A stretch of DNA of 64,000 bases from a virus. Taxonomy: Duplodnaviria; Heunggongvirae; Uroviricota; Caudoviricetes. Positions 43,561 to 49,492 of the stretch are shown piece after piece (the first letter of the stretch is position 1; every line of letters begins with the position of its first letter). Location: the IMG/VR virus record IMGVR_UViG_3300031999_007842, positions 53,708 to 117,707 of that record; one strand, written 5' to 3'. The notes below the pieces were generated by a model that searched no databases, was not told the origin of the DNA, and was given only the letters and a program-made list of their open reading frames with translations. The translations under genes and the position numbers were made by a program.

Positions 43561-43794
43561 ATGGCCATTAATATGAGTGAATTAACACAGAAGAGACCAA
43601 GTTCTTGCCCACGGATACGTTCCTGTACGAACGAAGTAGATGAAATAGATTATAGTTCTACTTGTGCAAGCAAGAATTGGATTTGGTGTCCTCTCATGAA
43701 AGAAGAAGCCAAAAAATATCTACCTAAAGCTCTTCCCTGTGAGTGGAAAATGATAAAGAAATTAGAAGGTGAAAAAAAAGATGGAGAAAAGTGA
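43561..43794 (+). CDS. small Cys protein of the W[VI][FW]C...KKY family
   Basis: NWIWCPLMKEEAKKYLPKALPCEWKMIKKLEG. Confidence 0.4.
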   Translation: MAINMSELTQKRPSSCPRIRSCTNEVDEIDYSSTCASKNWIWCPLMKEEAKKYLPKALPCEWKMIKKLEGEKKDGEK

Positions 43795-45016
43795 AGAAAG
43801 AAAGTATGATAGTCCAGGAGAAAGAATGGACAAGTTAATGCTGGAACTGAAGAAGAAACGAAGCCTTAAGGGATTGAGAACAGCAGTCTCTGAAGTCCTG
43901 GGAGCAGCCCCTGGAGATATGAAAGACTTCAGTTTCAATATTGGTGCTCATAAATGGAGAGGGACCATTTACCAGAAACGTAACTCTCTGATGGGTACAG
44001 TTGTTTCCTTCTTCGATACTAAACTCTATGTAGTTCGTGGATATCCCAAGATCAAGTACTCTGATGATTCACGAGTCTATCTGAGAGATTGTGTAGCTCA
44101 AGAGAAGATAGATGGAAGCAACTTTGGAATATTCCTACTTCCAGATGGAACAATGATGGCCAAGACAAGAATGGTTGTCAACTGGAACAATGCTGCCTAC
44201 AAGCGAAAAGATAAGACATGGCGACAACTCTTTGAAATGATAGACAATGGAGATCTCTTGAGGCGCATCAATGAATTGATTGTCAATCATGACTGTGTTA
44301 TCTATGGAGAACTTTATGGGAAGCTCAACCCAGGAGACTTTGTCAAATATTCTGTAGACATAGCATTCAAAGTCTTTGACATCCTGACCCGTAAAACAAA
44401 TAGATTCTTGCCGGCAAGTGAAGTGTATCGACTCTGTGAAGTCTATGAGATTCCTCATGTACAAGAAACCTGGAATGGCATTCTAACTGACAAAGAAATA
44501 GAGAGAATTGAATTCGAACTACAAGATCAAGTGAAGGACGATGGAATGGAAGGTTGGGTAGCTAAGACCTTCTTCAAAGACGAGAAAGATGTTTACATGT
44601 GCAAACTGAAATGCCAGAAAGTCAAAGAGGAATGCTGGGACAAAGATAGAAAGCCAATGATTCCTACATCAATAGTTCGTAAGGCAGTTCGCAAGACGCT
44701 TGATAACTTCCCTGAAGCTAAGACGATTGAAGAAATGGAACCACATGTGCTGGATGAACTTCGAGAGGAAGTCGAGGAAGTGTTGATTCAACAGTCATTG
44801 GATAGAATCAGAGCAGAGATAAGATGGGCATTGACTCCAGAAGATGAGGACTTGCTAAAGATAGTCATTGATAAGATGAAGGAGATGCAGGATAGAGGAA
44901 TAGACTTGAGCAATAAAGGCCACGTTCTCTCTAACCTTTCCAGCGCTTTGGGAACGATAAGTGGTGGGAAACTCTATCAACTCTATCATGCAGCTTTACG
45001 AGACATAAACACCTAA
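43769..45016 (+). CDS. ATP-dependent RNA ligase, Rnl2-like (nucleotidyltransferase superfamily)
   Basis: motif I QEKIDGSNFGIF (Lys-x-Asp-Gly, Asn not Arg as in Rnl2 KIHGTN), motif IV EGWVAK, motif V KLKCQK. Confidence 0.55.
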   Translation: MKKKMEKSEERKYDSPGERMDKLMLELKKKRSLKGLRTAVSEVLGAAPGDMKDFSFNIGAHKWRGTIYQKRNSLMGTVVSFFDTKLYVVRGYPKIKYSDDSRVYLRDCVAQEKIDGSNFGIFLLPDGTMMAKTRMVVNWNNAAYKRKDKTWRQLFEMIDNGDLLRRINELIVNHDCVIYGELYGKLNPGDFVKYSVDIAFKVFDILTRKTNRFLPASEVYRLCEVYEIPHVQETWNGILTDKEIERIEFELQDQVKDDGMEGWVAKTFFKDEKDVYMCKLKCQKVKEECWDKDRKPMIPTSIVRKAVRKTLDNFPEAKTIEEMEPHVLDELREEVEEVLIQQSLDRIRAEIRWALTPEDEDLLKIVIDKMKEMQDRGIDLSNKGHVLSNLSSALGTISGGKLYQLYHAALRDINT

Positions 45017-45493: not shown

Positions 45494-45848
45494 GACCATA
45501 GAGACTTGGTACGTTAATGGGATAAAAGAAGAGGTAACCGAAAACCCTCCGGTATTAGGCGAGGAAAGGAAGACAAGTATGGAACGCTCCTTTCCTGAAA
45601 GTCCTGCCTCGATCCCAGCGGAATACTCAAGTCTCTAAACCAATACCCTTATATTTTGGTTACACTGTTATGTGTATAAGACTCGGTGATTTGAATGGCA
45701 GAATGGTTCCTATCAAAGCCGCATTGTTTGCACAATCGTTTAAGTAGCAAACAGTCCGGTACAAAGTCACAAGAGTCGGAATAAACAAGATCACCAGTCT
45801 TTTGTTGTAGTTCCATTCTGTCATTAATCTGTTCTCTTGTGCGGTGAA

Positions 45849-45992
45849 GCGGAGGTGGCTGAGTCAGGTTTAAAGCGCCAGACTGCTAACAGGGGCGAAA
45901 CTTGAAACAGGGTGATACTGGAATCGAATCATTAACCTGACAGATATCTGGTGGGCTTGCCCGCGAAGGTTCAAATCCTTCCCTCCGCGCCA
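45849..45992 (+). tRNA. tRNA-Ser(GCT), 57-nt intron at 37/38 (45889..45945), CCA encoded
   Basis: acceptor GCGGAGG/CCTCCGC, D-arm, anticodon stem CCAGA/TCTGG, loop CUGCUA|A, long variable arm, T-arm GAAGG-TTCAAAT-CCTTC, GCCA end. Confidence 0.7.
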
Positions 45993-46004
45993 GTTACAAG
46001 GAAT

Positions 46005-46160
46005 GCAGGGGTAGCTAAGTCAGGCCGAAAGCGCCGGGCTTAAGCGTCTTTCAAAGACCTTGAGGGCGTAGCTAAGAGGCGTTAAGCTCAAAGGCTTGAC
46101 ACTGAGACACCCGGTCACATAGGTGAAACATCGCCGGTTCGAATCCGGCCCCCTGCACCA
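46005..46160 (+). tRNA. tRNA-Leu(TAA), 64-nt intron at 37/38 (46045..46108), CCA encoded
   Basis: acceptor GCAGGGG/CCCCTGC, anticodon stem CCGGG/CCCGG, loop CUUAAG, variable hairpin TCAC-ATAG-GTGA, T-arm GCCGG-TTCGAAT-CCGGC; intron repeats exon segment GTAGCTAAG. Confidence 0.7.
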
Positions 46161-46167
46161 GTAACAT

Positions 46168-46241
46168 GCCGATGTAGCCTAACTAGGAAAGGCAGTGGCT
46201 TTGTAAGCCACCTCATAGGAGTTCAACTCTCCTCATCGGCT
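46168..46241 (+). tRNA. tRNA-Thr(TGT), intronless, no CCA
   Basis: full cloverleaf: GCCGATG/CATCGGC, GTGGC-TTTGTAA-GCCAC, AGGAG-TTCAACT-CTCCT. Confidence 0.7.
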
Positions 46242-46244
46242 TTT

Positions 46245-46317
46245 GGATCTATAGCATAACAAGGCAGTGCAGTGGACCTTTAATCCACATATCCGAGTTC
46301 AAATCTCGGTAGATCCA
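46245..46317 (+). tRNA. tRNA-Lys(TTT), intronless, no CCA; unusual C at position 33
   Basis: GGATCTA/TAGATCC, GTGGA-CCTTTAA-TCCAC, CCGAG-TTCAAAT-CTCGG. Confidence 0.55.
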
Positions 46318-46320
46318 TTC

Positions 46321-46394
46321 GGACCATTAGCTTAACCAGGTAGAGCGGTAGACCCTTAATCTACTAATTGCGGGTTCAAATCCCGCATGGTCCT
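46321..46394 (+). tRNA. tRNA-Lys(CTT), intronless, no CCA; C at position 33
   Basis: GGACCAT/ATGGTCC, GTAGA-CCCTTAA-TCTAC, GCGGG-TTCAAAT-CCCGC. Confidence 0.55.
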
Positions 46395-46399
46395 TCAGT

Positions 46400-46471
46400 G
46401 GCTTGAGTAGTGTAGTAGCAGCACAGTGGTCTGTGGAGCCACGAGCAAGAGTGCAATCCTCTTCTCAAGCC
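46400..46471 (+). tRNA. tRNA-His(GTG) with G-1, intronless, no CCA
   Basis: extra 5' G pairing with discriminator C; GTGGT-CTGTGGA-GCCAC; T-loop TGCAATC (non-canonical position 55). Confidence 0.6.
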
Positions 46472-46478
46472 CTCATAT

Positions 46479-46552
46479 GCCTGAGTGGACAAGCCTGGAA
46501 AGTCAGTTGCCTGCAGAGCAACTAAGCGGGGGTTCAAATCCCCTCTCAGGCT
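46479..46552 (+). tRNA. tRNA-Cys(GCA), intronless, no CCA
   Basis: GCCTGAG/CTCAGGC, GTTGC-CTGCAGA-GCAAC, GGGGG-TTCAAAT-CCCCT. Confidence 0.6.
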
Positions 46553-46557
46553 TTCAA

Positions 46558-46977
46558 GCAGGTGTGATGTAATGGCAACATCCCAGCCTTCCAAAGTCAA
46601 ACAGAAGGGCTAATAGATCACCATCACTTGTATAAGTGGTGATAAAATGAAAACACCAGCACAAATCAATAAAGAATATAGACAAAGAGTAAGAGAAAAG
46701 GCAAATCAAGTCTTCGGGAAGAAATGTTTCTTCTGCGGACATGAAGTAGGAAGAATGCCTCTTCATAATAAGAAAGGAGAAAAGCATCCTACTGATTTGA
46801 CTGCAAGAGAAGCTTTGAAGAATCCTGAAGATTGGGTTCGTCTATGCAAACATTGCCATCGAGGAGTTCATTTCTCTATGAATATCCTTGAAATGGATTG
46901 GGAACAAATAGTTAAACTAGCAAAGAAAGTTTGACTGAGGAAAGCTGATTATCTGGGTTCAATTCCCAGCACCTGCA
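46558..46977 (+). tRNA. tRNA-Gly(TCC) interrupted by a 349-nt intron (46594..46942) that contains an HNH endonuclease ORF
   Basis: 5' exon GCAGGTG-TG-ATGT-AATGGCA-ACAT-C-CCAGC-CUUCCA; 3' exon A-GCTGA-TTAT-CTGGG-TTCAATT-CCCAG-CACCTGC-A. Confidence 0.55.
46647..46934 (+). CDS. HNH endonuclease encoded inside the tRNA-Gly intron
   Basis: CFFCGHE...LHNKKGEKH...CKHCHRGVH = CxxC...HN...CxxH HNH-like; ORF ends 8 nt before the 3' exon. Confidence 0.5.
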   Translation: MKTPAQINKEYRQRVREKANQVFGKKCFFCGHEVGRMPLHNKKGEKHPTDLTAREALKNPEDWVRLCKHCHRGVHFSMNILEMDWEQIVKLAKKV

Positions 46978-46983
46978 CTCATA

Positions 46984-47058
46984 GGGGTAGTGGTGTAGTT
47001 TGGTCAACATCCCTGGCTTGGAACCAGGTGAACGTCAGTTCGAGTCTGGCCTACCCCA
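46984..47058 (+). tRNA. tRNA-Pro(TGG), intronless, no CCA
   Basis: GGGGTAG/CTACCCC, CCTGG-CTTGGAA-CCAGG, GTCAG-TTCGAGT-CTGGC. Confidence 0.65.
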
Positions 47059-47073
47059 CTCATAGTCACGGTT

Positions 47074-47166
47074 TGGATAGGAGTTGTTGAGATGGGAACC
47101 GTGCACATCATAGCTTTACCTACTGAGGAAAAAGACTTTGCGACGGAACAACTAAGCTCCTATCCG
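47074..47166. other. long imperfect hairpin / tRNA-like remnant (14-bp stem GGATAGGAGTTGTT..AACAACTAAGCTCCTATCC)
   Basis: stem visible in sequence; no cloverleaf could be fitted. Confidence 0.3.
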
Positions 47167-47191
47167 TTAATTAAACTATCGAGGTTATAAC

Positions 47192-47328
47192 ATGACAGCA
47201 CTCAAAGATTGCAACAAGTGTGGTAAACAAGTAGACATGAAAGAGATAACCATCGTCTGGGATCCAGAAGGGCACTCTTTTACTTGGGTGTGTGGAAAAT
47301 GCCTCAAGATATATCGGCAACGTATATA
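47192..47328 (+). CDS. small zinc-ribbon protein (45 aa, below ORF-track cutoff)
   Basis: MTALKDCNKCGKQ...WVCGKCLKIY; ATG with upstream GAGG. Confidence 0.3.
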
Positions 47329-47607
47329 AGTAAGAGCGAATACCTATATATAGTCCAGTAAGTGAGAAGATGGCATACACAACTATGGCTTCACATCCGG
47401 ATGCGGGTTATTAGCCCGCAACCCAGAATCGGCTGGCAGTCGACTGGGAGGGTGAGGAGTCAGATGAGTGGGAAAGAAGAAGCATATCAAAGGAATAAAG
47501 GAACACACTACCTGCAGAAGGTGTCGTGTCCCGATAGTCTCTTGGAGTGCACTAGACCCAGTATGCATAAACTGTGCAATCTGGGGAGGACCCAAGAAAG
47601 ACTAAAT

Positions 47608-47620
47608 CCTTTCTTTTTTA
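47608..47620 (+). terminator. oligo-T tract (CCTTTCTTTTTTA), candidate archaeal-type terminator
   Basis: T-run directly upstream of tRNA-Tyr, at the end of an apparently noncoding GC-richer segment. Confidence 0.25.
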
Positions 47621-47626
47621 GTAACA

Positions 47627-47778
47627 CTTCTCGTGGTGTAATAGCAGCATAATTGACTGTAAATAGTAGAGCGAAGGGAATTGACTAACCGATGAAAATA
47701 GCTGAGGGCTATGGACTACCTGTTCGTTCGAATAGCAGTTACCAATCGGACTTGGTGCAAATCCAAGCGGGAAGACCA
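47627..47778 (+). tRNA. tRNA-Tyr(GTA), 78-nt intron at 37/38 (47663..47740), CCA encoded
   Basis: CTTCTCG/CGGGAAG acceptor (one G-U), GTGT-AATAGCA-GCAT D-arm, ATTGA-CUGUAA|, T-arm CTTGG-TGCAAAT-CCAAG, ACCA end. Confidence 0.55.
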
Positions 47779-47784
47779 ATAATA

Positions 47785-47789
47785 GGTGA
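47785..47789 (+). promoter_or_regulatory. GGTGA RBS-like motif
   Basis: 6 nt upstream of ATG 47796. Confidence 0.35.
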
Positions 47790-47795
47790 ATCGTA

Positions 47796-48764
47796 ATGGA
47801 TAAGAAATTGCTCTATCTCAAGTCAGTAAACCATGATGTCATCACTGTCTATATTGCTAAGGGAAGTTCTGTCCAGAAGACATTGAACTTACTGAAAAGA
47901 GAAGAGCCAATCGTACAGAATATTAAATCAAGAGTGACTAGGCAAGCAATCGAGACAGCATTCCAGAAGATCAAAAGCTTCCTAGCTAGTCCTCCTCCTT
48001 CAGAGAATGGATACATCGTTGTAGCTTCAGCCACTGACTTTGCTTGGACAGTAGAGTTCCTAATAGAGGAAGACTTCTATCGTTGTGGTAATGAATTCTA
48101 TTCTACACTTCTTGAAGAGATCCTATTACTCAAACTTTATCCAATAGGGATAATAACAATAGATACTAAGGAAGCCACGTTAGGTCACATAGGTTCCACG
48201 ATCCAGATTCTCAAGTACATGACTTCAGGAATACCAGGGAAGAGTCACAAAGGAGGACAATCTCAACGAAGGTATGAACGTGAAAGAGACATGGCAGTTG
48301 CAGCTTTCTTCAAACGAGTAGGAGATGCTGCTAAACTCTTTGTGGAGAACTATCCCATAGAAGAACTATTGATCTCTGGATGTGGGCAGACAAAGGATGA
48401 CTTCCTAAAGGCAAAGTACTTAGACTACCGCCTCAAAGCGAAGGTCACTGAAGTCATTGATACCCAATACACTGGTGAGCACGGAATCAGGGAAACCCTG
48501 CACAAAGCACTACCCCTTCTACAGAAGAATGCTTATGCAAGGGAGGTCCAGGTCGTTGAAAGGGTGTTTGAAATGCTGGGTAAGAACTTTGAGGCAGTAG
48601 TCTATGGACAAGATGAGATCAAGAGGCAGATTCATTCAATCAAGAAGATTATCAAGATAGAAGAGATCAAGGAAGAATATCAGAAGGAAACAGTTATCTT
48701 GCACTTTCACGGGGAACATTATGAGAAGATTAAGTCCTTGGGAGGAATAGTCGGAACCAAATAA
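47796..48764 (+). CDS. class-I peptide chain release factor, aRF1/eRF1-like, C-terminally truncated (322 aa)
   Basis: domain-1 NIKS motif (IVQNIKSRV) and YxCxxxF (YRCGNEF), domain-2 GGQ motif (HKGGQSQRRYER); by eye about 75 aa of domain-3-like sequence follows before the ORF ends. Confidence 0.7.
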   Translation: MDKKLLYLKSVNHDVITVYIAKGSSVQKTLNLLKREEPIVQNIKSRVTRQAIETAFQKIKSFLASPPPSENGYIVVASATDFAWTVEFLIEEDFYRCGNEFYSTLLEEILLLKLYPIGIITIDTKEATLGHIGSTIQILKYMTSGIPGKSHKGGQSQRRYERERDMAVAAFFKRVGDAAKLFVENYPIEELLISGCGQTKDDFLKAKYLDYRLKAKVTEVIDTQYTGEHGIRETLHKALPLLQKNAYAREVQVVERVFEMLGKNFEAVVYGQDEIKRQIHSIKKIIKIEEIKEEYQKETVILHFHGEHYEKIKSLGGIVGTK

Positions 48765-48925
48765 GGTCTGTCGGTCAGTTGGAACTGATCCCTGCCTGTC
48801 AATCTAAGAGCTCTCAAAAATGAGAGTGGGGTGGTGGACGAGGCGGCCCAGACTGGAAAATCTCCAAACTATACTCTTAGAACAGAACGTAGGGGAAGCG
48901 GGTCCGATTCCCGCACAGACCGCCA
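48765..48925 (+). tRNA. tRNA-Asp(GTC), about 86-nt intron at 37/38 (48802..48887), CCA encoded
   Basis: GGTCTGT/ACAGACC, GTCA-GTTGGAAC-TGAT, CCTGC-CUGUCA|...GTAGG, T-arm GCGGG-TCCGATT-CCCGC, GCCA end; starts 1 nt after aRF1 stop. Confidence 0.55.
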
Positions 48926-49168
48926 TTAAAGTGATTGCATGAATATAAATGCAGAGAATAATTCGTTTGTGCATTTCTGCACTCTTTCTCGGTTACCATA
49001 TATTGATTTCCATGTCCCTGGAAAAGATCGGGAACGCCTCTATCTGAAGATTGAATTAGGACAATTCTGGGGAATAACAATTGGAATTTGGGATATGGAG
49101 CATCATATCAGGAAATGGAAAAGACTAAGATTTTATACTAGATTAAAAGATCTCAAGAAGGAAAGGAA

Positions 49169-49492
49169 ATGGTAAGAATATATCACATGAGAACTAGATG
49201 GGAACCTGCAATATCAGATGGATTAACTTTGCCATGCTATATTTGTAGGGAAATTCCCAAGTTTGATTACAGTGTAGATCATGCTTTCTGGAAGGAGGTA
49301 GTAGAGAAAAAATATCGACTTGGAGTGATTTGTCTTCCTTGCTTAGATAAGTTGGCTACTGCAAAAGGATTGAATCTCTCGAAGCATCTGATTGAAGTTC
49401 AGTTCACAGGTATCAAGAAGACTATTGTCTTAGTTCCTACCAAAGTCTTCGACTACAGCAATTTCAAGAGAAAGAAGCCGGAAGAAAAGTGA
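49169..49492 (+). CDS. hypothetical protein
   Basis: co-directional ORF. Confidence 0.4.
   Translation: MVRIYHMRTRWEPAISDGLTLPCYICREIPKFDYSVDHAFWKEVVEKKYRLGVICLPCLDKLATAKGLNLSKHLIEVQFTGIKKTIVLVPTKVFDYSNFKRKKPEEK

Follow-up and report, generated by a model that had tools for sequence, protein, structure and literature searches.

The window, a stretch of 64,000 nucleotides, contains an island of eleven tRNA genes, six intronless and five split. We consider it likely that the island is the tRNA/translation module of a probably viral archaeal element, with introns as insertions that come and go. This reading is built on directly observed gene structures, bulge-helix-bulge (BHB) motifs, orthologue presence or absence and family membership, as well as on the modelled HNH fold of an intron-encoded protein.

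Gene calling at 45849–48925 was performed with ARAGORN, the Rfam tRNA covariance model (gathering score of 29 bits) and our own cloverleaf scan, which found all eleven genes (Table 1). The genes are arranged head to tail on the same strand, separated by very short spacers. The intronless ones (Thr, two Lys, His, Cys and Pro) were called by both ARAGORN and the Rfam model. In all five split genes (Ser, Leu, Gly, Tyr and Asp) the intron is located exactly between positions 37 and 38. The intron mode of ARAGORN recovered Ser and Leu split at this site; it also found the Gly gene, but wrongly called it Arg-CCG and gave its intron a length of 347 nt. The spliced forms of all five pass ARAGORN at its default threshold. 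Every tRNA and anticodon listed in an earlier note on this DNA was thus recovered, and the five introns have the position and lengths given there. On unspliced DNA the Rfam model scores Ser, Leu and Tyr at 49.3, 45.9 and 32.0 bits; it did not recover the unspliced Gly and Asp genes directly, and their intronless orthologues in the related locus L011 score 57.3 and 38 bits, respectively. Both Lys tRNAs carry C33. The T-loop of tRNA-Asp is unusual (TCCGATT, with C55), and the Asp orthologue of L009 is below the Rfam threshold, with compensatory changes in the acceptor and T stems. It is possible that tRNA-Asp is a weak or decaying tRNA, as judged from this loop and this orthologue.

Table 1. Features of the tRNA island and its surroundings (window coordinates).
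Feature	Position (strand)	Structure	Evidence
Rnl2-type RNA ligase gene	43781-45016 (+)	just upstream of island	Pfam PF09414 E=1e-18; PHROG 548 'RNA ligase'
tRNA-Ser(GCT)	45849-45992 (+)	exons 45849-45888, 45946-45992; intron 45889-45945, 57 nt; CCA	ARAGORN, Rfam
tRNA-Leu(TAA)	46005-46160 (+)	exons 46005-46044, 46109-46160; intron 46045-46108, 64 nt; CCA	ARAGORN, Rfam
Compact tRNA block	46168-46552 (+)	intronless, CCA-less, spacers 2-6 nt	ARAGORN; Rfam 53.6-65.1 bits
tRNA-Thr(TGT)	46168-46241 (+)	intronless, no CCA	ARAGORN, Rfam
tRNA-Lys(TTT)	46244-46318 (+)	intronless, no CCA	ARAGORN, Rfam
tRNA-Lys(CTT)	46321-46394 (+)	intronless, no CCA	ARAGORN, Rfam
tRNA-His(GTG)	46401-46472 (+)	intronless, no CCA; G-1 at 46400	ARAGORN, Rfam
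tRNA-Cys(GCA)	46479-46552 (+)	intronless, no CCA	ARAGORN, Rfam
tRNA-Gly(TCC)	46558-46977 (+)	exons 46558-46593, 46943-46977; intron 46594-46942, 349 nt; no CCA	spliced form: ARAGORN
HNH-fold nuclease, candidate homing endonuclease	46647-46934 (+)	95 aa, intron-encoded	PHROG, residues, AlphaFold2, fold search
tRNA-Pro(TGG)	46984-47059 (+)	intronless, no CCA; final gene of compact block	ARAGORN; Rfam 61.9 bits
Conserved non-coding stretch	47060-47190 (+)	3' of Pro; long hairpin GGATAGGAG...CTCCTATCC	nhmmer, RNAfold
Small zinc-ribbon ORF	47192-47329 (+)	45 aa, CxxC...CxxC	ORF listing; present in L111
Conserved unit	47390-47605 (+)	structured leader with Shine-Dalgarno-like GGGAGGGTGAGGAG, then 45-aa zinc-ribbon ORF	nhmmer
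Zinc-ribbon ORF of conserved unit	47468-47605 (+)	45 aa, GTG start	ORF listing
tRNA-Tyr(GTA)	47627-47778 (+)	exons 47627-47662, 47741-47778; intron 47663-47740, 78 nt; CCA	Rfam; spliced form: ARAGORN
Shortened aRF1/eRF1-type class-I release factor	47796-48764 (+)	322 aa	Pfam eRF1_2 E=1e-28
tRNA-Asp(GTC)	48765-48925 (+)	exons 48765-48801, 48888-48925; intron 48802-48887, 86 nt; CCA	spliced form: ARAGORN

Folding of the exon–intron junctions reveals a BHB motif flanking each of the five introns. Its central helix is formed by positions 32–35 paired with intron positions -3 to -6; all four pairs are present in Leu, Gly, Tyr and Asp, and Ser has three pairs and a C·A mismatch. Bulges of 3 nt occur at both splice sites in all five genes, and the intron-side helix comprises 8 bp in Gly and Asp and 4 bp in Ser. 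The probability that all five central helices arose together by chance is ~5e-8.

The introns differ in their distribution among relatives of the element. Conserved copies of the Ser intron occur in L011 and L007, of the Leu intron in L011, L009 and L007, and of the Tyr intron in L011, L104, L109, L111 and L123; all three can be recognized at the DNA level in relatives with proteins just 57–69% identical. Within the Leu gene, conservation is higher in the intron core than in the variable arm or the T arm. The Tyr intron contains a stem in which both partners of five pairs have changed, as well as an invariant segment, ACCGATGAAA. Compared in this way, all three introns are conserved, structured and of long standing. 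No homologue of the Asp intron was found in the other family loci compared, and by the same comparison this intron is a lineage-specific gain. The Gly orthologues of L011 and L097 are intronless, the alignment gap falling exactly at the insertion point; on this alignment, Gly gained its intron within a conserved CCA-less gene block. As far as the orthologues tell, introns are gained and lost in this family of elements and do not mark genes of separate origin.

The ORF of the Gly intron matches PHROG 8048 ‘HNH endonuclease’ (E=5.8e-5), and the residues CxxC..H..CxxCH...H are invariant in 64 homologues of the encoded protein. Its AlphaFold2 model (pLDDT of 95.9) has an HNH fold, and the fold search with this model returned mostly HNH nucleases (Cap5, Cas9 HNH, T5 SciA, GVE2 and McrA). 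The protein would be expected to possess nuclease activity and to mediate homing. Homologues are found within introns of the Arg-TCG, Arg-TCT and Thr-TGT genes of L128, where the ORF-bearing tRNA introns have perfect BHB motifs; their occurrence in BHB introns of other tRNA genes points to mobile introns. The Gly intron has the appearance of a mobile intron that was inserted recently and carries an HNH-type homing-endonuclease gene. No description of an HNH nuclease in a BHB intron of a tRNA gene on a viral or mobile genome was found in the literature searched.

The RNA ligase gene adjoins the tRNA island in L011 as well, followed by Ser/Leu, and lies near the aRF1 gene in L013, L012 and L009. 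The non-coding stretch downstream of Pro has nhmmer matches in L011, L097 and L109; its RNAfold minimum free energy of -30.3 kcal/mol is a single value without shuffle control. The unit with the structured leader was found by nhmmer in nine further family loci; the leader forms two covarying hairpins with compensatory changes in the alignment, and variation at Cys and Arg codons is synonymous. The aRF1 gene begins 17 nt after tRNA-Tyr and directly abuts tRNA-Asp on its downstream side (0 nt). Its NIKS, YxCxxxF and GGQ motifs are invariant across 22 family members; the family numbers ~42 proteins of 46–99% identity, cellular aRF1s showing just 30–38%. This gene is situated on a contig of 171,794 bp (171,825 bp in a second assembly) belonging to a family of elements of 114–172 kb from sediment (relatives, 114–157 kb) that have in common a tRNA island, the shortened aRF1-type release factor and the Rnl2-type RNA ligase. 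A Topo VI-A-like protein and other genes are also shared with relatives, whose islands conserve the Ser and Leu introns.

The archaeal setting suggested by the earlier note is supported by the strict BHB introns, the aRF1-type release factor, a Topo VI-A/Spo11 Toprim protein, the archaeal/eukaryal-type PTH2, eIF-1A and PF01941 SAM synthetase of relatives, the G-1 encoded in tRNA-His and Shine-Dalgarno-like leaders, the last two arguing against a eukaryote. Self-splicing group I introns of bacterial or phage type with HNH or PD-(D/E)XK homing endonucleases are known in bacterial and phage tRNA genes (PMC3984707, PMC13011429); for a eukaryotic host with eukaryal tRNA splicing machinery speak the 37/38 site, where eukaryal tRNA introns also sit, and a topoisomerase IB of eukaryote type on the contig. 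Both are highly improbable, since four of the five introns fit the strict archaeal motif with a 4-bp central helix (the fifth, Ser, has the C·A mismatch), all five have the 3-nt bulges and four measure just 57–86 nt. The Gly intron is nearly all ORF, and the Rfam search gave no group I intron match at E<=1. Further points against these readings are the G-1 of tRNA-His, CCA encoded in four genes, operon-style gene overlaps, GGTGA/GGAGG leaders and grouping of the release factor with archaeal aRF1. More weight, though still little, can be given to the two-source proposal of the earlier note, taken here to mean that the short-intron tRNAs with CCA were captured from a host and that the CCA-less intronless ones together with Gly are native to the element. 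The pattern on which it was based is real: CCA follows the discriminator in Ser, Leu, Tyr and Asp only (4 of 11 genes) and is lacking in the six intronless genes and Gly, a clean split of 4/4 versus 0/7. Fisher's one-sided p is 0.015 for intron versus no intron among the 11 window genes and 0.003 for the post-hoc split of the earlier note. Moreover, G+C is 60–63% in three of the four CCA genes versus 43–57% in the block genes, and in five pooled family loci CCA occurs in 11/14 intron-bearing versus 20/50 other genes (p=0.011), counts that are not independent because the genes are orthologous. The two-source interpretation is, however, not supported by the relatives, where CCA is kept on intronless orthologues of Asp (L011, L099, L101, L112, L009 and L007) and Tyr (L097 and L012) and on 12 of the 13 intronless tRNAs of L007, and where one intron-bearing tRNA without CCA occurs in L011 and L097. 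The absence of CCA tracks membership of the tightly packed Thr-to-Pro block, conserved in the window, L011 and L097, and the pyrimidine-rich 3' tails of the block genes (CTC, TTC, CTT and CCT) resemble decayed CCA. The Ser and Leu genes with their introns are common to relatives at 57% aRF1 identity and so are long-term residents rather than recent captures. An origin from two sources is therefore unlikely, and by these comparisons both CCA classes are old residents of the element family.

It is also possible, though we hold it only tentatively, that the excised short introns are functional (stable circular, guide or protein-binding RNAs) and are kept for this reason, which is compatible with the main reading. 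The DNA similarity of the Ser, Leu and Tyr introns at the above protein divergence, the Leu intron core and the Tyr stem with its invariant segment agree with such a role, and so does the length of 57–86 nt. Most cellular archaeal tRNA introns are shorter, and they are mostly without ORFs. On the other hand, this conservation could reflect recent exchange of tRNA cassettes between elements or constraints of precursor folding, and for the Asp intron no relative was found in the loci compared. The short introns match no Rfam family, and inspection by eye gave no convincing C/D-box pair. Rather less credible is that the element is not a virus but a large plasmid-like or extrachromosomal archaeal element or a mis-assembled piece of host chromosome, which would leave the island unaffected. 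No capsid, portal or terminase genes were found in the ~82 kb of contig examined, so the ‘virus’ label rests on relatives; genes for ParB-like, PD-(D/E)XK, MoxR/VWA and topoisomerase proteins would suit a plasmid too, and a single strand carries all genes. However, one of the relatives, sharing many genes at 55–72% identity, is a viral genome in IMG/VR, and a more distant one has weak capsid and terminase matches. No rRNA or ribosomal-protein genes were seen, the ~160 mostly small ORFs are in the majority without family assignment at a coding density of 90%, and the two assemblies end at almost equal size. Taken by its gene content and relatives, this large element (~172 kb) is probably viral and belongs to an uncultured archaeon of anoxic sediment.

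The island is probably transcribed as one or few precursors, from which host RNase P and tRNase Z would release the individual tRNAs. Five of these would also require the host splicing endonuclease recognizing the BHB at 37/38, and the seven CCA-less tRNAs the host CCA-adding enzyme. Ligation of the tRNA halves would fall to an RNA ligase, RtcB of the host or possibly the Rnl2-type enzyme of the element. Cleavage by the splicing endonuclease, however, yields cyclic-phosphate and 5'-OH ends, whereas Rnl2-type ligases seal 3'-OH to 5'-phosphate, and no kinase or phosphatase for healing such ends was recognized in the window. The mature tRNAs may supplement or replace host tRNAs in infection. They read ~35% of the codons of the element (Lys alone 10%), and its genetic code is standard. 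The shortened aRF1 and the ligase may sustain translation when host tRNAs or ribosomes are damaged.

The earlier note regarded intron-bearing tRNAs on a viral genome as notable in themselves; for an archaeal virus they are, but they are not unprecedented, since the haloarchaeal tailed virus HGTV-1 (Hagravirus capitaneum) has 34 tRNA genes, one with an intron (PMC13532342). Its Rnl2-family RNA ligases were proposed to act on tRNA introns (PMC13532342, PMC8651126), and its genome of 143,855 bp, compared with ~172 kb for the present contig, was called the largest of an archaeal virus (PMC13532342). A sizeable tRNA complement with an intron and an Rnl2-type ligase are thus common to both. In contrast to HGTV-1, five of the eleven tRNA genes are split here, the introns are long (57–349 nt) and one encodes a nuclease, and the element comes from sediment instead of brine and carries an aRF1 gene. 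The 3.2-kb island (45800–49000) has no DNA match in the phage collection, and kinship with HGTV-1 was rejected on this ground. Archaeal rRNA BHB introns with LAGLIDADG homing endonucleases, e.g. I-DmoI and I-PorI (PMC6125680, PMC4496867), resemble the Gly intron in being protein-spliced, in carrying a nuclease ORF and in presence or absence between alleles; the Gly intron differs in interrupting a tRNA gene (at 37/38, the canonical site), in the HNH fold of its nuclease and in its viral or mobile carrier. With cellular archaeal tRNA introns (PMC4090602) the introns of the island share the canonical position, hBHBh' geometry and a normal spliced cloverleaf. They differ in being longer and on a mobile element, three of them conserved and structured across distant relatives. 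In T4, tRNA genes occur with Rnl1 and polynucleotide kinase, and in bacteria RtcB is paired with PrfH. As in these systems, the tRNA genes here have an RNA ligase and a release-factor-like protein encoded close by, a gene neighbourhood that suggests maintenance of translation under attack; unlike in them, the components are of archaeal type (aRF1, BHB introns, Rnl2-type ligase), with no kinase or phosphatase identified in the window. Finally, group I introns with homing endonucleases in cyanobacterial tRNA-fMet (I-Ssp6803I) and in Patescibacteria tRNAs (PMC3984707, PMC13011429) are likewise mobile introns with a nuclease gene in the tRNA anticodon loop. In contrast to these, the Gly intron has BHB geometry and no ribozyme, and its splicing must therefore depend on a protein enzyme of the host.

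The tRNA island consists of eleven genes on the plus strand, and all eleven genes and anticodons that the earlier note had read by hand were recovered by ARAGORN, the Rfam tRNA model and a custom cloverleaf scan. Six uninterrupted genes (Thr-TGT, Lys-TTT, Lys-CTT, His-GTG, Cys-GCA and Pro-TGG) are found by both ARAGORN and the Rfam model, and tRNA-His carries an encoded G-1 facing C73. The intron mode of ARAGORN gives Ser-GCT and Leu-TAA, interrupted after position 37 by introns of 57 and 64 nt, as well as a third gene with an insert of ~347 nt that is misread as Arg-CCG. The latter is Gly-TCC with a 349-nt intron in the cloverleaf scan, which was written for this analysis, permits an insert at 37/38 and was run over the window; it returned exactly eleven tRNA genes, also adding Tyr-GTA (78 nt) and Asp-GTC (86 nt). 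In spliced form all five split genes pass the default threshold of ARAGORN with the anticodons proposed in the note. As unspliced DNA, Ser, Leu and Tyr score 49.3, 45.9 and 32.0 bits with the Rfam tRNA model (gathering score 29); no tRNA match of unspliced Asp exceeds a competing tmRNA match, and unspliced Gly likewise cannot be scored directly. The intronless orthologues of these two genes in the related contig L011 (L numbers denote fetched contig loci, mostly from related elements) score 57.3 bits for Gly and 38 bits for Asp, and between the Asp copies of L009 and the window the acceptor and T stems show compensatory changes. The joined exons thus form a normal cloverleaf in all five cases.

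Several unusual bases were seen in these tRNAs. The T-loop of tRNA-Asp (window and L009) reads TCCGATT, where position 55, universally U, is C; the copy in L009 scores under the Rfam gathering score. Position 33, almost universally U, is C in both tRNA-Lys genes of four contigs. In Gly-TCC the same position is C in the intronless orthologues of L011 and L097 and U in the intron-bearing copy of the window.

All five introns lie at the canonical site between positions 37 and 38 (by ARAGORN for Ser and Leu, by the custom scan for all five). For an intron at this site the bulge-helix-bulge (BHB) motif predicts that positions 32–35 pair with intron positions -3 to -6 and that the intron then continues as a helix; the two 3-nt bulges are formed by positions 36 and 37 with the first intron base, and by the last two intron bases with position 38. 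The central helix has all four pairs in Leu, Gly, Tyr and Asp, and three of four with a C.A mismatch in Ser, a relaxed form that is identical in L011 and L007. The intron-side helix spans 2–8 bp and is longest, at 8 bp, in Gly and Asp. Every intron can pair with the anticodon loop of its own tRNA; for the five together the chance is ~5e-8 when intron ends are drawn randomly from the window. Self-splicing introns would be the alternative, but covariance models of group I introns and other ribozymes gave no match at E<=1 over 45500–49300; moreover, the conserved core of a group I intron needs at least ~200 nt, while four of the introns measure 57–86 nt and only 61 nt of the fifth lie outside its ORF. 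All five introns have the hBHBh' geometry of the archaeal BHB type, and their positions, lengths and motifs, as put forward in the note, are borne out at every exon-intron junction.

The Gly-TCC genes of L011 and L097 have no intron; relative to them, the window copy contains a clean insertion of 349 nt, placed exactly at 37/38. The insertion harbors a 95-aa ORF with the pattern CxxC...H.K.G..H...CxxCH...H, invariant among 64 homologues, which matches PHROG families annotated as HNH endonuclease (E=5.8e-5). The AlphaFold model reaches a pLDDT of 95.9 with the 64-sequence alignment (the single-sequence model, at 55, was unusable), and its best structural matches are almost all HNH nucleases: Cap5, Cas5-HNH, Cas9 HNH, the T5 nicking enzyme SciA, GVE2 HNH and McrA. 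Their scores are modest, as is usual for so small a fold. A profile search of PDB sequences gave a weak match to McrA only (E=0.28). At E<=1e-3, 491 relatives of the domain were found, some of them fused to helix-turn-helix arrays. The homologue closest to the intron ORF (58% identity by tblastn, 62% by BLASTP) is encoded in L128, a different virus-like contig, by the 343-nt intron of a tRNA-Arg(TCG) gene; this intron has four of four central pairs and an intron-side helix of 9 bp. In the same contig two further homologues lie within introns, one of 504 nt in Thr-TGT and one of 407 nt in Arg-TCT. Since positions 32–35 are CTTC in both Gly-TCC and Arg-TCG, the central helix would be retained on transfer between the two genes. 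An ORF of a recognised homing-endonuclease fold is thus found together with precise presence and absence among orthologues and related introns in other tRNA genes, and by these sequence comparisons the Gly intron looks like a mobile intron with a candidate HNH homing endonuclease inside. A palindrome centred on a TATA-like sequence stands just 5' of the ORF start (ATCACCATCACTTGTATAAGTGGTGAT in the window, TCGCCACTTATATAAGTGGCGA in L128), and its arms differ between the two in a compensatory manner. Possible roles are those of an internal promoter, from which a leaderless mRNA would start, and of a hairpin hiding the GGTGAT ribosome-binding site.

A different insertion of ~500 nt occupies the Ser-GCT orthologue in L123 and L109. 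Its 134-aa ORF has a D...EIK motif and weak matches to the Hjc, SduA_C and PD-(D/E)XK families. A brute-force splice-site search in the L123 copy was uninformative, because ARAGORN accepted too many combinations to place the predicted junctions. In L012 and L013 the RNA ligase and the MoxR-like ATPase are of roughly double length and give LAGLIDADG or intein-splicing Pfam matches (faint for the L013 ATPase), which suggests that the family may carry inteins besides mobile introns.

The short introns do not appear junk-like. DNA similarity of the Ser, Leu and Tyr introns is detectable in relatives whose release factor is only 57–69% identical; the core of the Leu intron is more conserved than the T arm of the Leu gene, and five pairs of the Tyr intron stem are altered on both sides. 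The Asp intron has no relative in the other fetched loci and is best read as a probable recent gain. The Leu intron contains a segment, GAGGGCGTAGCTAAGAGGCGTTAAGC, resembling the acceptor strand and D arm of a tRNA (20.7 bits with the Rfam tRNA model), and this segment is its most conserved portion in four contigs. A reading of the short introns as C/D-box sRNAs was dropped because the candidate boxes differ between relatives.

The CCA pattern described in the earlier note is as stated there: CCA follows the discriminator directly in Ser, Leu, Tyr and Asp and is absent from the other seven genes. The note took this split as a sign of two tRNA sources, possibly one derived from the host and the other native to the element. 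In the window alone CCA and introns are indeed associated (p=0.015, or p=0.003 for the post-hoc split of the note), and over five pooled loci CCA is encoded in 11 of 14 intron-bearing genes and in 20 of 50 others, a weak tendency in counts that are not independent, as the genes are orthologous. Comparison of orthologues contradicts the proposal. Related contigs carry comparable islands of 11 to 20 tRNA genes each; in the window, L011 and L007 the island opens with Ser and Leu, whose introns are homologous, and the packed CCA-less block from Thr to Pro is kept in the window, L011 and L097. Asp lacks an intron yet has CCA in L011, L099, L101, L112, L009 and L007, as does Tyr in L097 and L012; CCA is present on 12 of the 13 intronless tRNAs of L007, while L011 and L097 have one intron-bearing tRNA without it. 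CCA therefore goes with the gene lineage and cassette and not with the intron. Introns have, by this comparison, apparently been gained and lost independently of CCA, and both tRNA classes would be long resident in the family. The cellular loci fetched contained only 30 tRNAs, too few for comparison.

Coordinates of the features in the window and in related loci
Feature	Window	Other loci
Rnl2-type RNA ligase, just upstream of the island	43781-45016
tRNA island	45849-48925
Predicted splice junctions (Ser, Leu, Gly, Tyr, Asp)	45888/45946; 46044/46109; 46593/46943; 47662/47741; 48801/48888
Leu-TAA intron	46045-46108
tRNA-Lys genes (TTT, CTT) with C33	46244-46394	L009 766-916; L011 8155-8305; L128 1640-1791
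G-1 of tRNA-His	46400
95-aa HNH ORF of the Gly intron	46647-46934
Palindrome 5' of the intron ORF	46619-46645	L128 ~2160-2183
Conserved stretch after tRNA-Pro	47060-47190
Conserved unit with 45-aa ORF	47390-47605
aRF1/eRF1-type release factor, 322 aa, between Tyr and Asp	47796-48764
tRNA-Asp with C55	48888-48925	L009 1332-1403
Ser-GCT orthologue with ~500-nt insertion		L123 86-672; L109 1-270
TTA-anticodon tRNA		L109 278-435; L123 688-844
Enlarged RNA ligase and MoxR-like ATPase		L012 3483-5780; L013 5807-8056 and 19244 onward
Eukaryote-type topoisomerase IB		L003 13330-14901 (further along the contig, ~91.4-93.0 kb); L007 6534-8069; L009 3071-4618
ClpP, acetyltransferase		further along the contig
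Topo VI-A/Spo11 Toprim protein; Band-7, MoxR/VWA, ParB-like and PD-(D/E)XK proteins		genes of the contig

The release factor encoded within the island is shorter than cellular aRF1 (~410 aa). Residues G153, G154 and S156 of the GGQ region, N42 and S45 of NIKS, and Y95, C97 and F101 of YxCxxxF are invariant in 22 aRF1s of the family, and I43 and K44 of NIKS are nearly so. Pfam eRF1_2 matches the window protein with E=1e-28. The C-terminal domain 3 gives only 18.8 bits with eRF1_3, under the cut-off, and cellular homologues align to residues 14–280 only; about half of this domain appears to be missing. The gene starts 17 nt 3' of Tyr, preceded by AGGTGA, and no base separates its stop codon from the start of Asp. 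The junction with Asp recurs in L099, L101 and L112, and that with Tyr in L011. As the two tRNAs directly flank the gene, it is possible that the ends of the aRF1 mRNA are defined by tRNA processing.

In L109 and L123, where aRF1 is 74–76% identical, a tRNA with a long variable arm and a TTA anticodon is found that would decode UAA, a stop codon. It carries an encoded CCA and, at 37/38, an intron of 73–74 nt, and looks like a relative of Leu-TAA changed at one anticodon base. No in-frame stops occur in the aRF1 genes of these two loci, and the tRNA is absent from the window.

Two further stretches of the island are conserved. The unit with the 45-aa ORF is kept in nine other loci of the family and shows two hairpins with compensatory changes as well as a strong Shine-Dalgarno-like GGGAGGGTGAGGAG; the ORF (CxxC...CxxC) has a GTG or TTG start immediately after TGA. 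The stretch 47390–47625 was also considered as a non-coding RNA, a reading abandoned when the alignment showed its 3' two-thirds to be this ORF, and the unit may encode a small zinc-ribbon protein under regulation. Downstream of tRNA-Pro, the window shares a conserved stretch with L011, L097 and L109; it contains a long hairpin, GGATAGGAG...CTCCTATCC, and a possible crossing helix CACGGTT...AACCGTG; it has no Rfam match.

The window corresponds to ~25.8–89.8 kb of a 171,794-bp metagenome contig (ENA ERZ27247977 k141_5059899). Since a second assembly (the JGI twin) measures 171,825 bp, the contig may be a complete genome, larger than the 143,855-bp HGTV-1. The genes lie on one strand, with a coding density of ~90%; most of the ~160 ORFs are small and have no family assignment. 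The genetic code is standard, as all three stop codons are in use. No capsid, portal or terminase gene was found in the readable 82 kb, so that "virus" is a tentative designation for this contig. A family of ~42 proteins (46–99% identical), on contigs of up to 157 kb, is defined by the short release factor; cellular aRF1s reach only 30–38% identity. The relatives derive from sediment-type metagenomes, presumably estuarine, lake and subsurface sediments to judge from the sample names, and share many genes with the window. They also encode archaeal/eukaryal-type PTH2, eIF-1A, an archaeal SAM synthetase, Ro60/TROVE and RlaP. An alignment-based scan identified one gene-sharing relative as an IMG/VR viral genome of 121.5 kb, and a more distant relative has weak capsid and terminase matches. 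The tRNA island (45800–49000) had no DNA match in the phage collection, and a single-protein scan of IMG/VR with the window aRF1 gave none either. We conclude that the element is most probably a large archaeal virus-like element.

When genomes were scanned with the aRF1 alignment, all matches were cellular aRF1s, from many archaeal phyla and at 30–37% identity, and none was a member of the element family; the best local identity, 41–45%, was with Bathyarchaeia. The topoisomerase IB of the contig, L007 and L009 is full-length and has the N-terminal, the core and the C-terminal domain of Pfam. Within the archaea such an enzyme is, as far as known, a hallmark of Nitrososphaeria and a few lineages related to them, which makes it a possible clue to the host. 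A TTTAWATA-type TATA box is absent from the coding strand of the 64-kb window and occurs once on the other strand (~20 expected from base composition, a rough estimate), and no enriched hexamer was found in the intergenic gaps of the window; transcription units were consequently deduced from gene spacing only. L128 has clear AAAGGTTTATATA-type promoter motifs.

Given these gene structures, motifs and comparative pattern, established archaeal tRNA biology would predict the following route. Because the spacers are only 2–12 nt, the island tRNAs are probably transcribed as precursors, whose ends would be processed by RNase P and tRNase Z. The host splicing endonuclease would cut out the introns, the exons would be joined by RtcB or, after end-healing, by the ligase of the element, and CCA would be added to seven of the tRNAs. 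The co-location of tRNAs, ligase and release factor, joined in relatives by Ro60, RlaP and PTH2, suggests a module that could sustain translation during infection. A joint reading can be offered tentatively, at slightly less than even weight: the tRNA genes of a large archaeal virus family would have been colonised by an undescribed class of mobile BHB introns with HNH (in relatives possibly PD-(D/E)XK) homing endonucleases, moving among tRNA genes at 37/38; the older, ORF-less introns of Ser, Leu and Tyr would be kept since the excised, probably circular RNAs serve the virus; and the module of tRNA-flanked short aRF1, ligase and, in relatives, a UAA-reading suppressor tRNA would be a virus-run takeover or rescue of host translation.

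To our knowledge, archaeal viral tRNA genes have hardly been studied. The literature searched contained no description of a viral tRNA island with nearly half its genes bearing BHB introns, of tRNA-gene BHB introns carrying HNH nucleases (nuclease-bearing ones are known from rRNA genes), or of an aRF1-carrying family of 114–172 kb sediment elements. Here nearly half of a viral tRNA set would rely on the splicing machinery of the host, and the arrival and departure of introns can be seen between close relatives, making the island a natural test bed for the spread of archaeal tRNA introns, a long-standing question. The elements of this family encode a release factor of their own and may be larger than any archaeal virus genome described so far; how archaeal viruses control translation termination and RNA repair thereby becomes open to testing. 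The largest one described is HGTV-1, at 143,855 bp (PMC13532342), which encodes tRNAs, one of them with an intron, and Rnl2 ligases (PMC13532342, PMC8651126); in contrast to this one intron-bearing viral tRNA reported in the literature searched, introns interrupt five of the eleven tRNA genes in the present island. BHB introns with nucleases were described in archaeal rRNA genes, where the enzymes are of the LAGLIDADG type (PMC6125680, PMC4496867), whereas the nuclease ORF found here is of the HNH type and resides in a tRNA gene.
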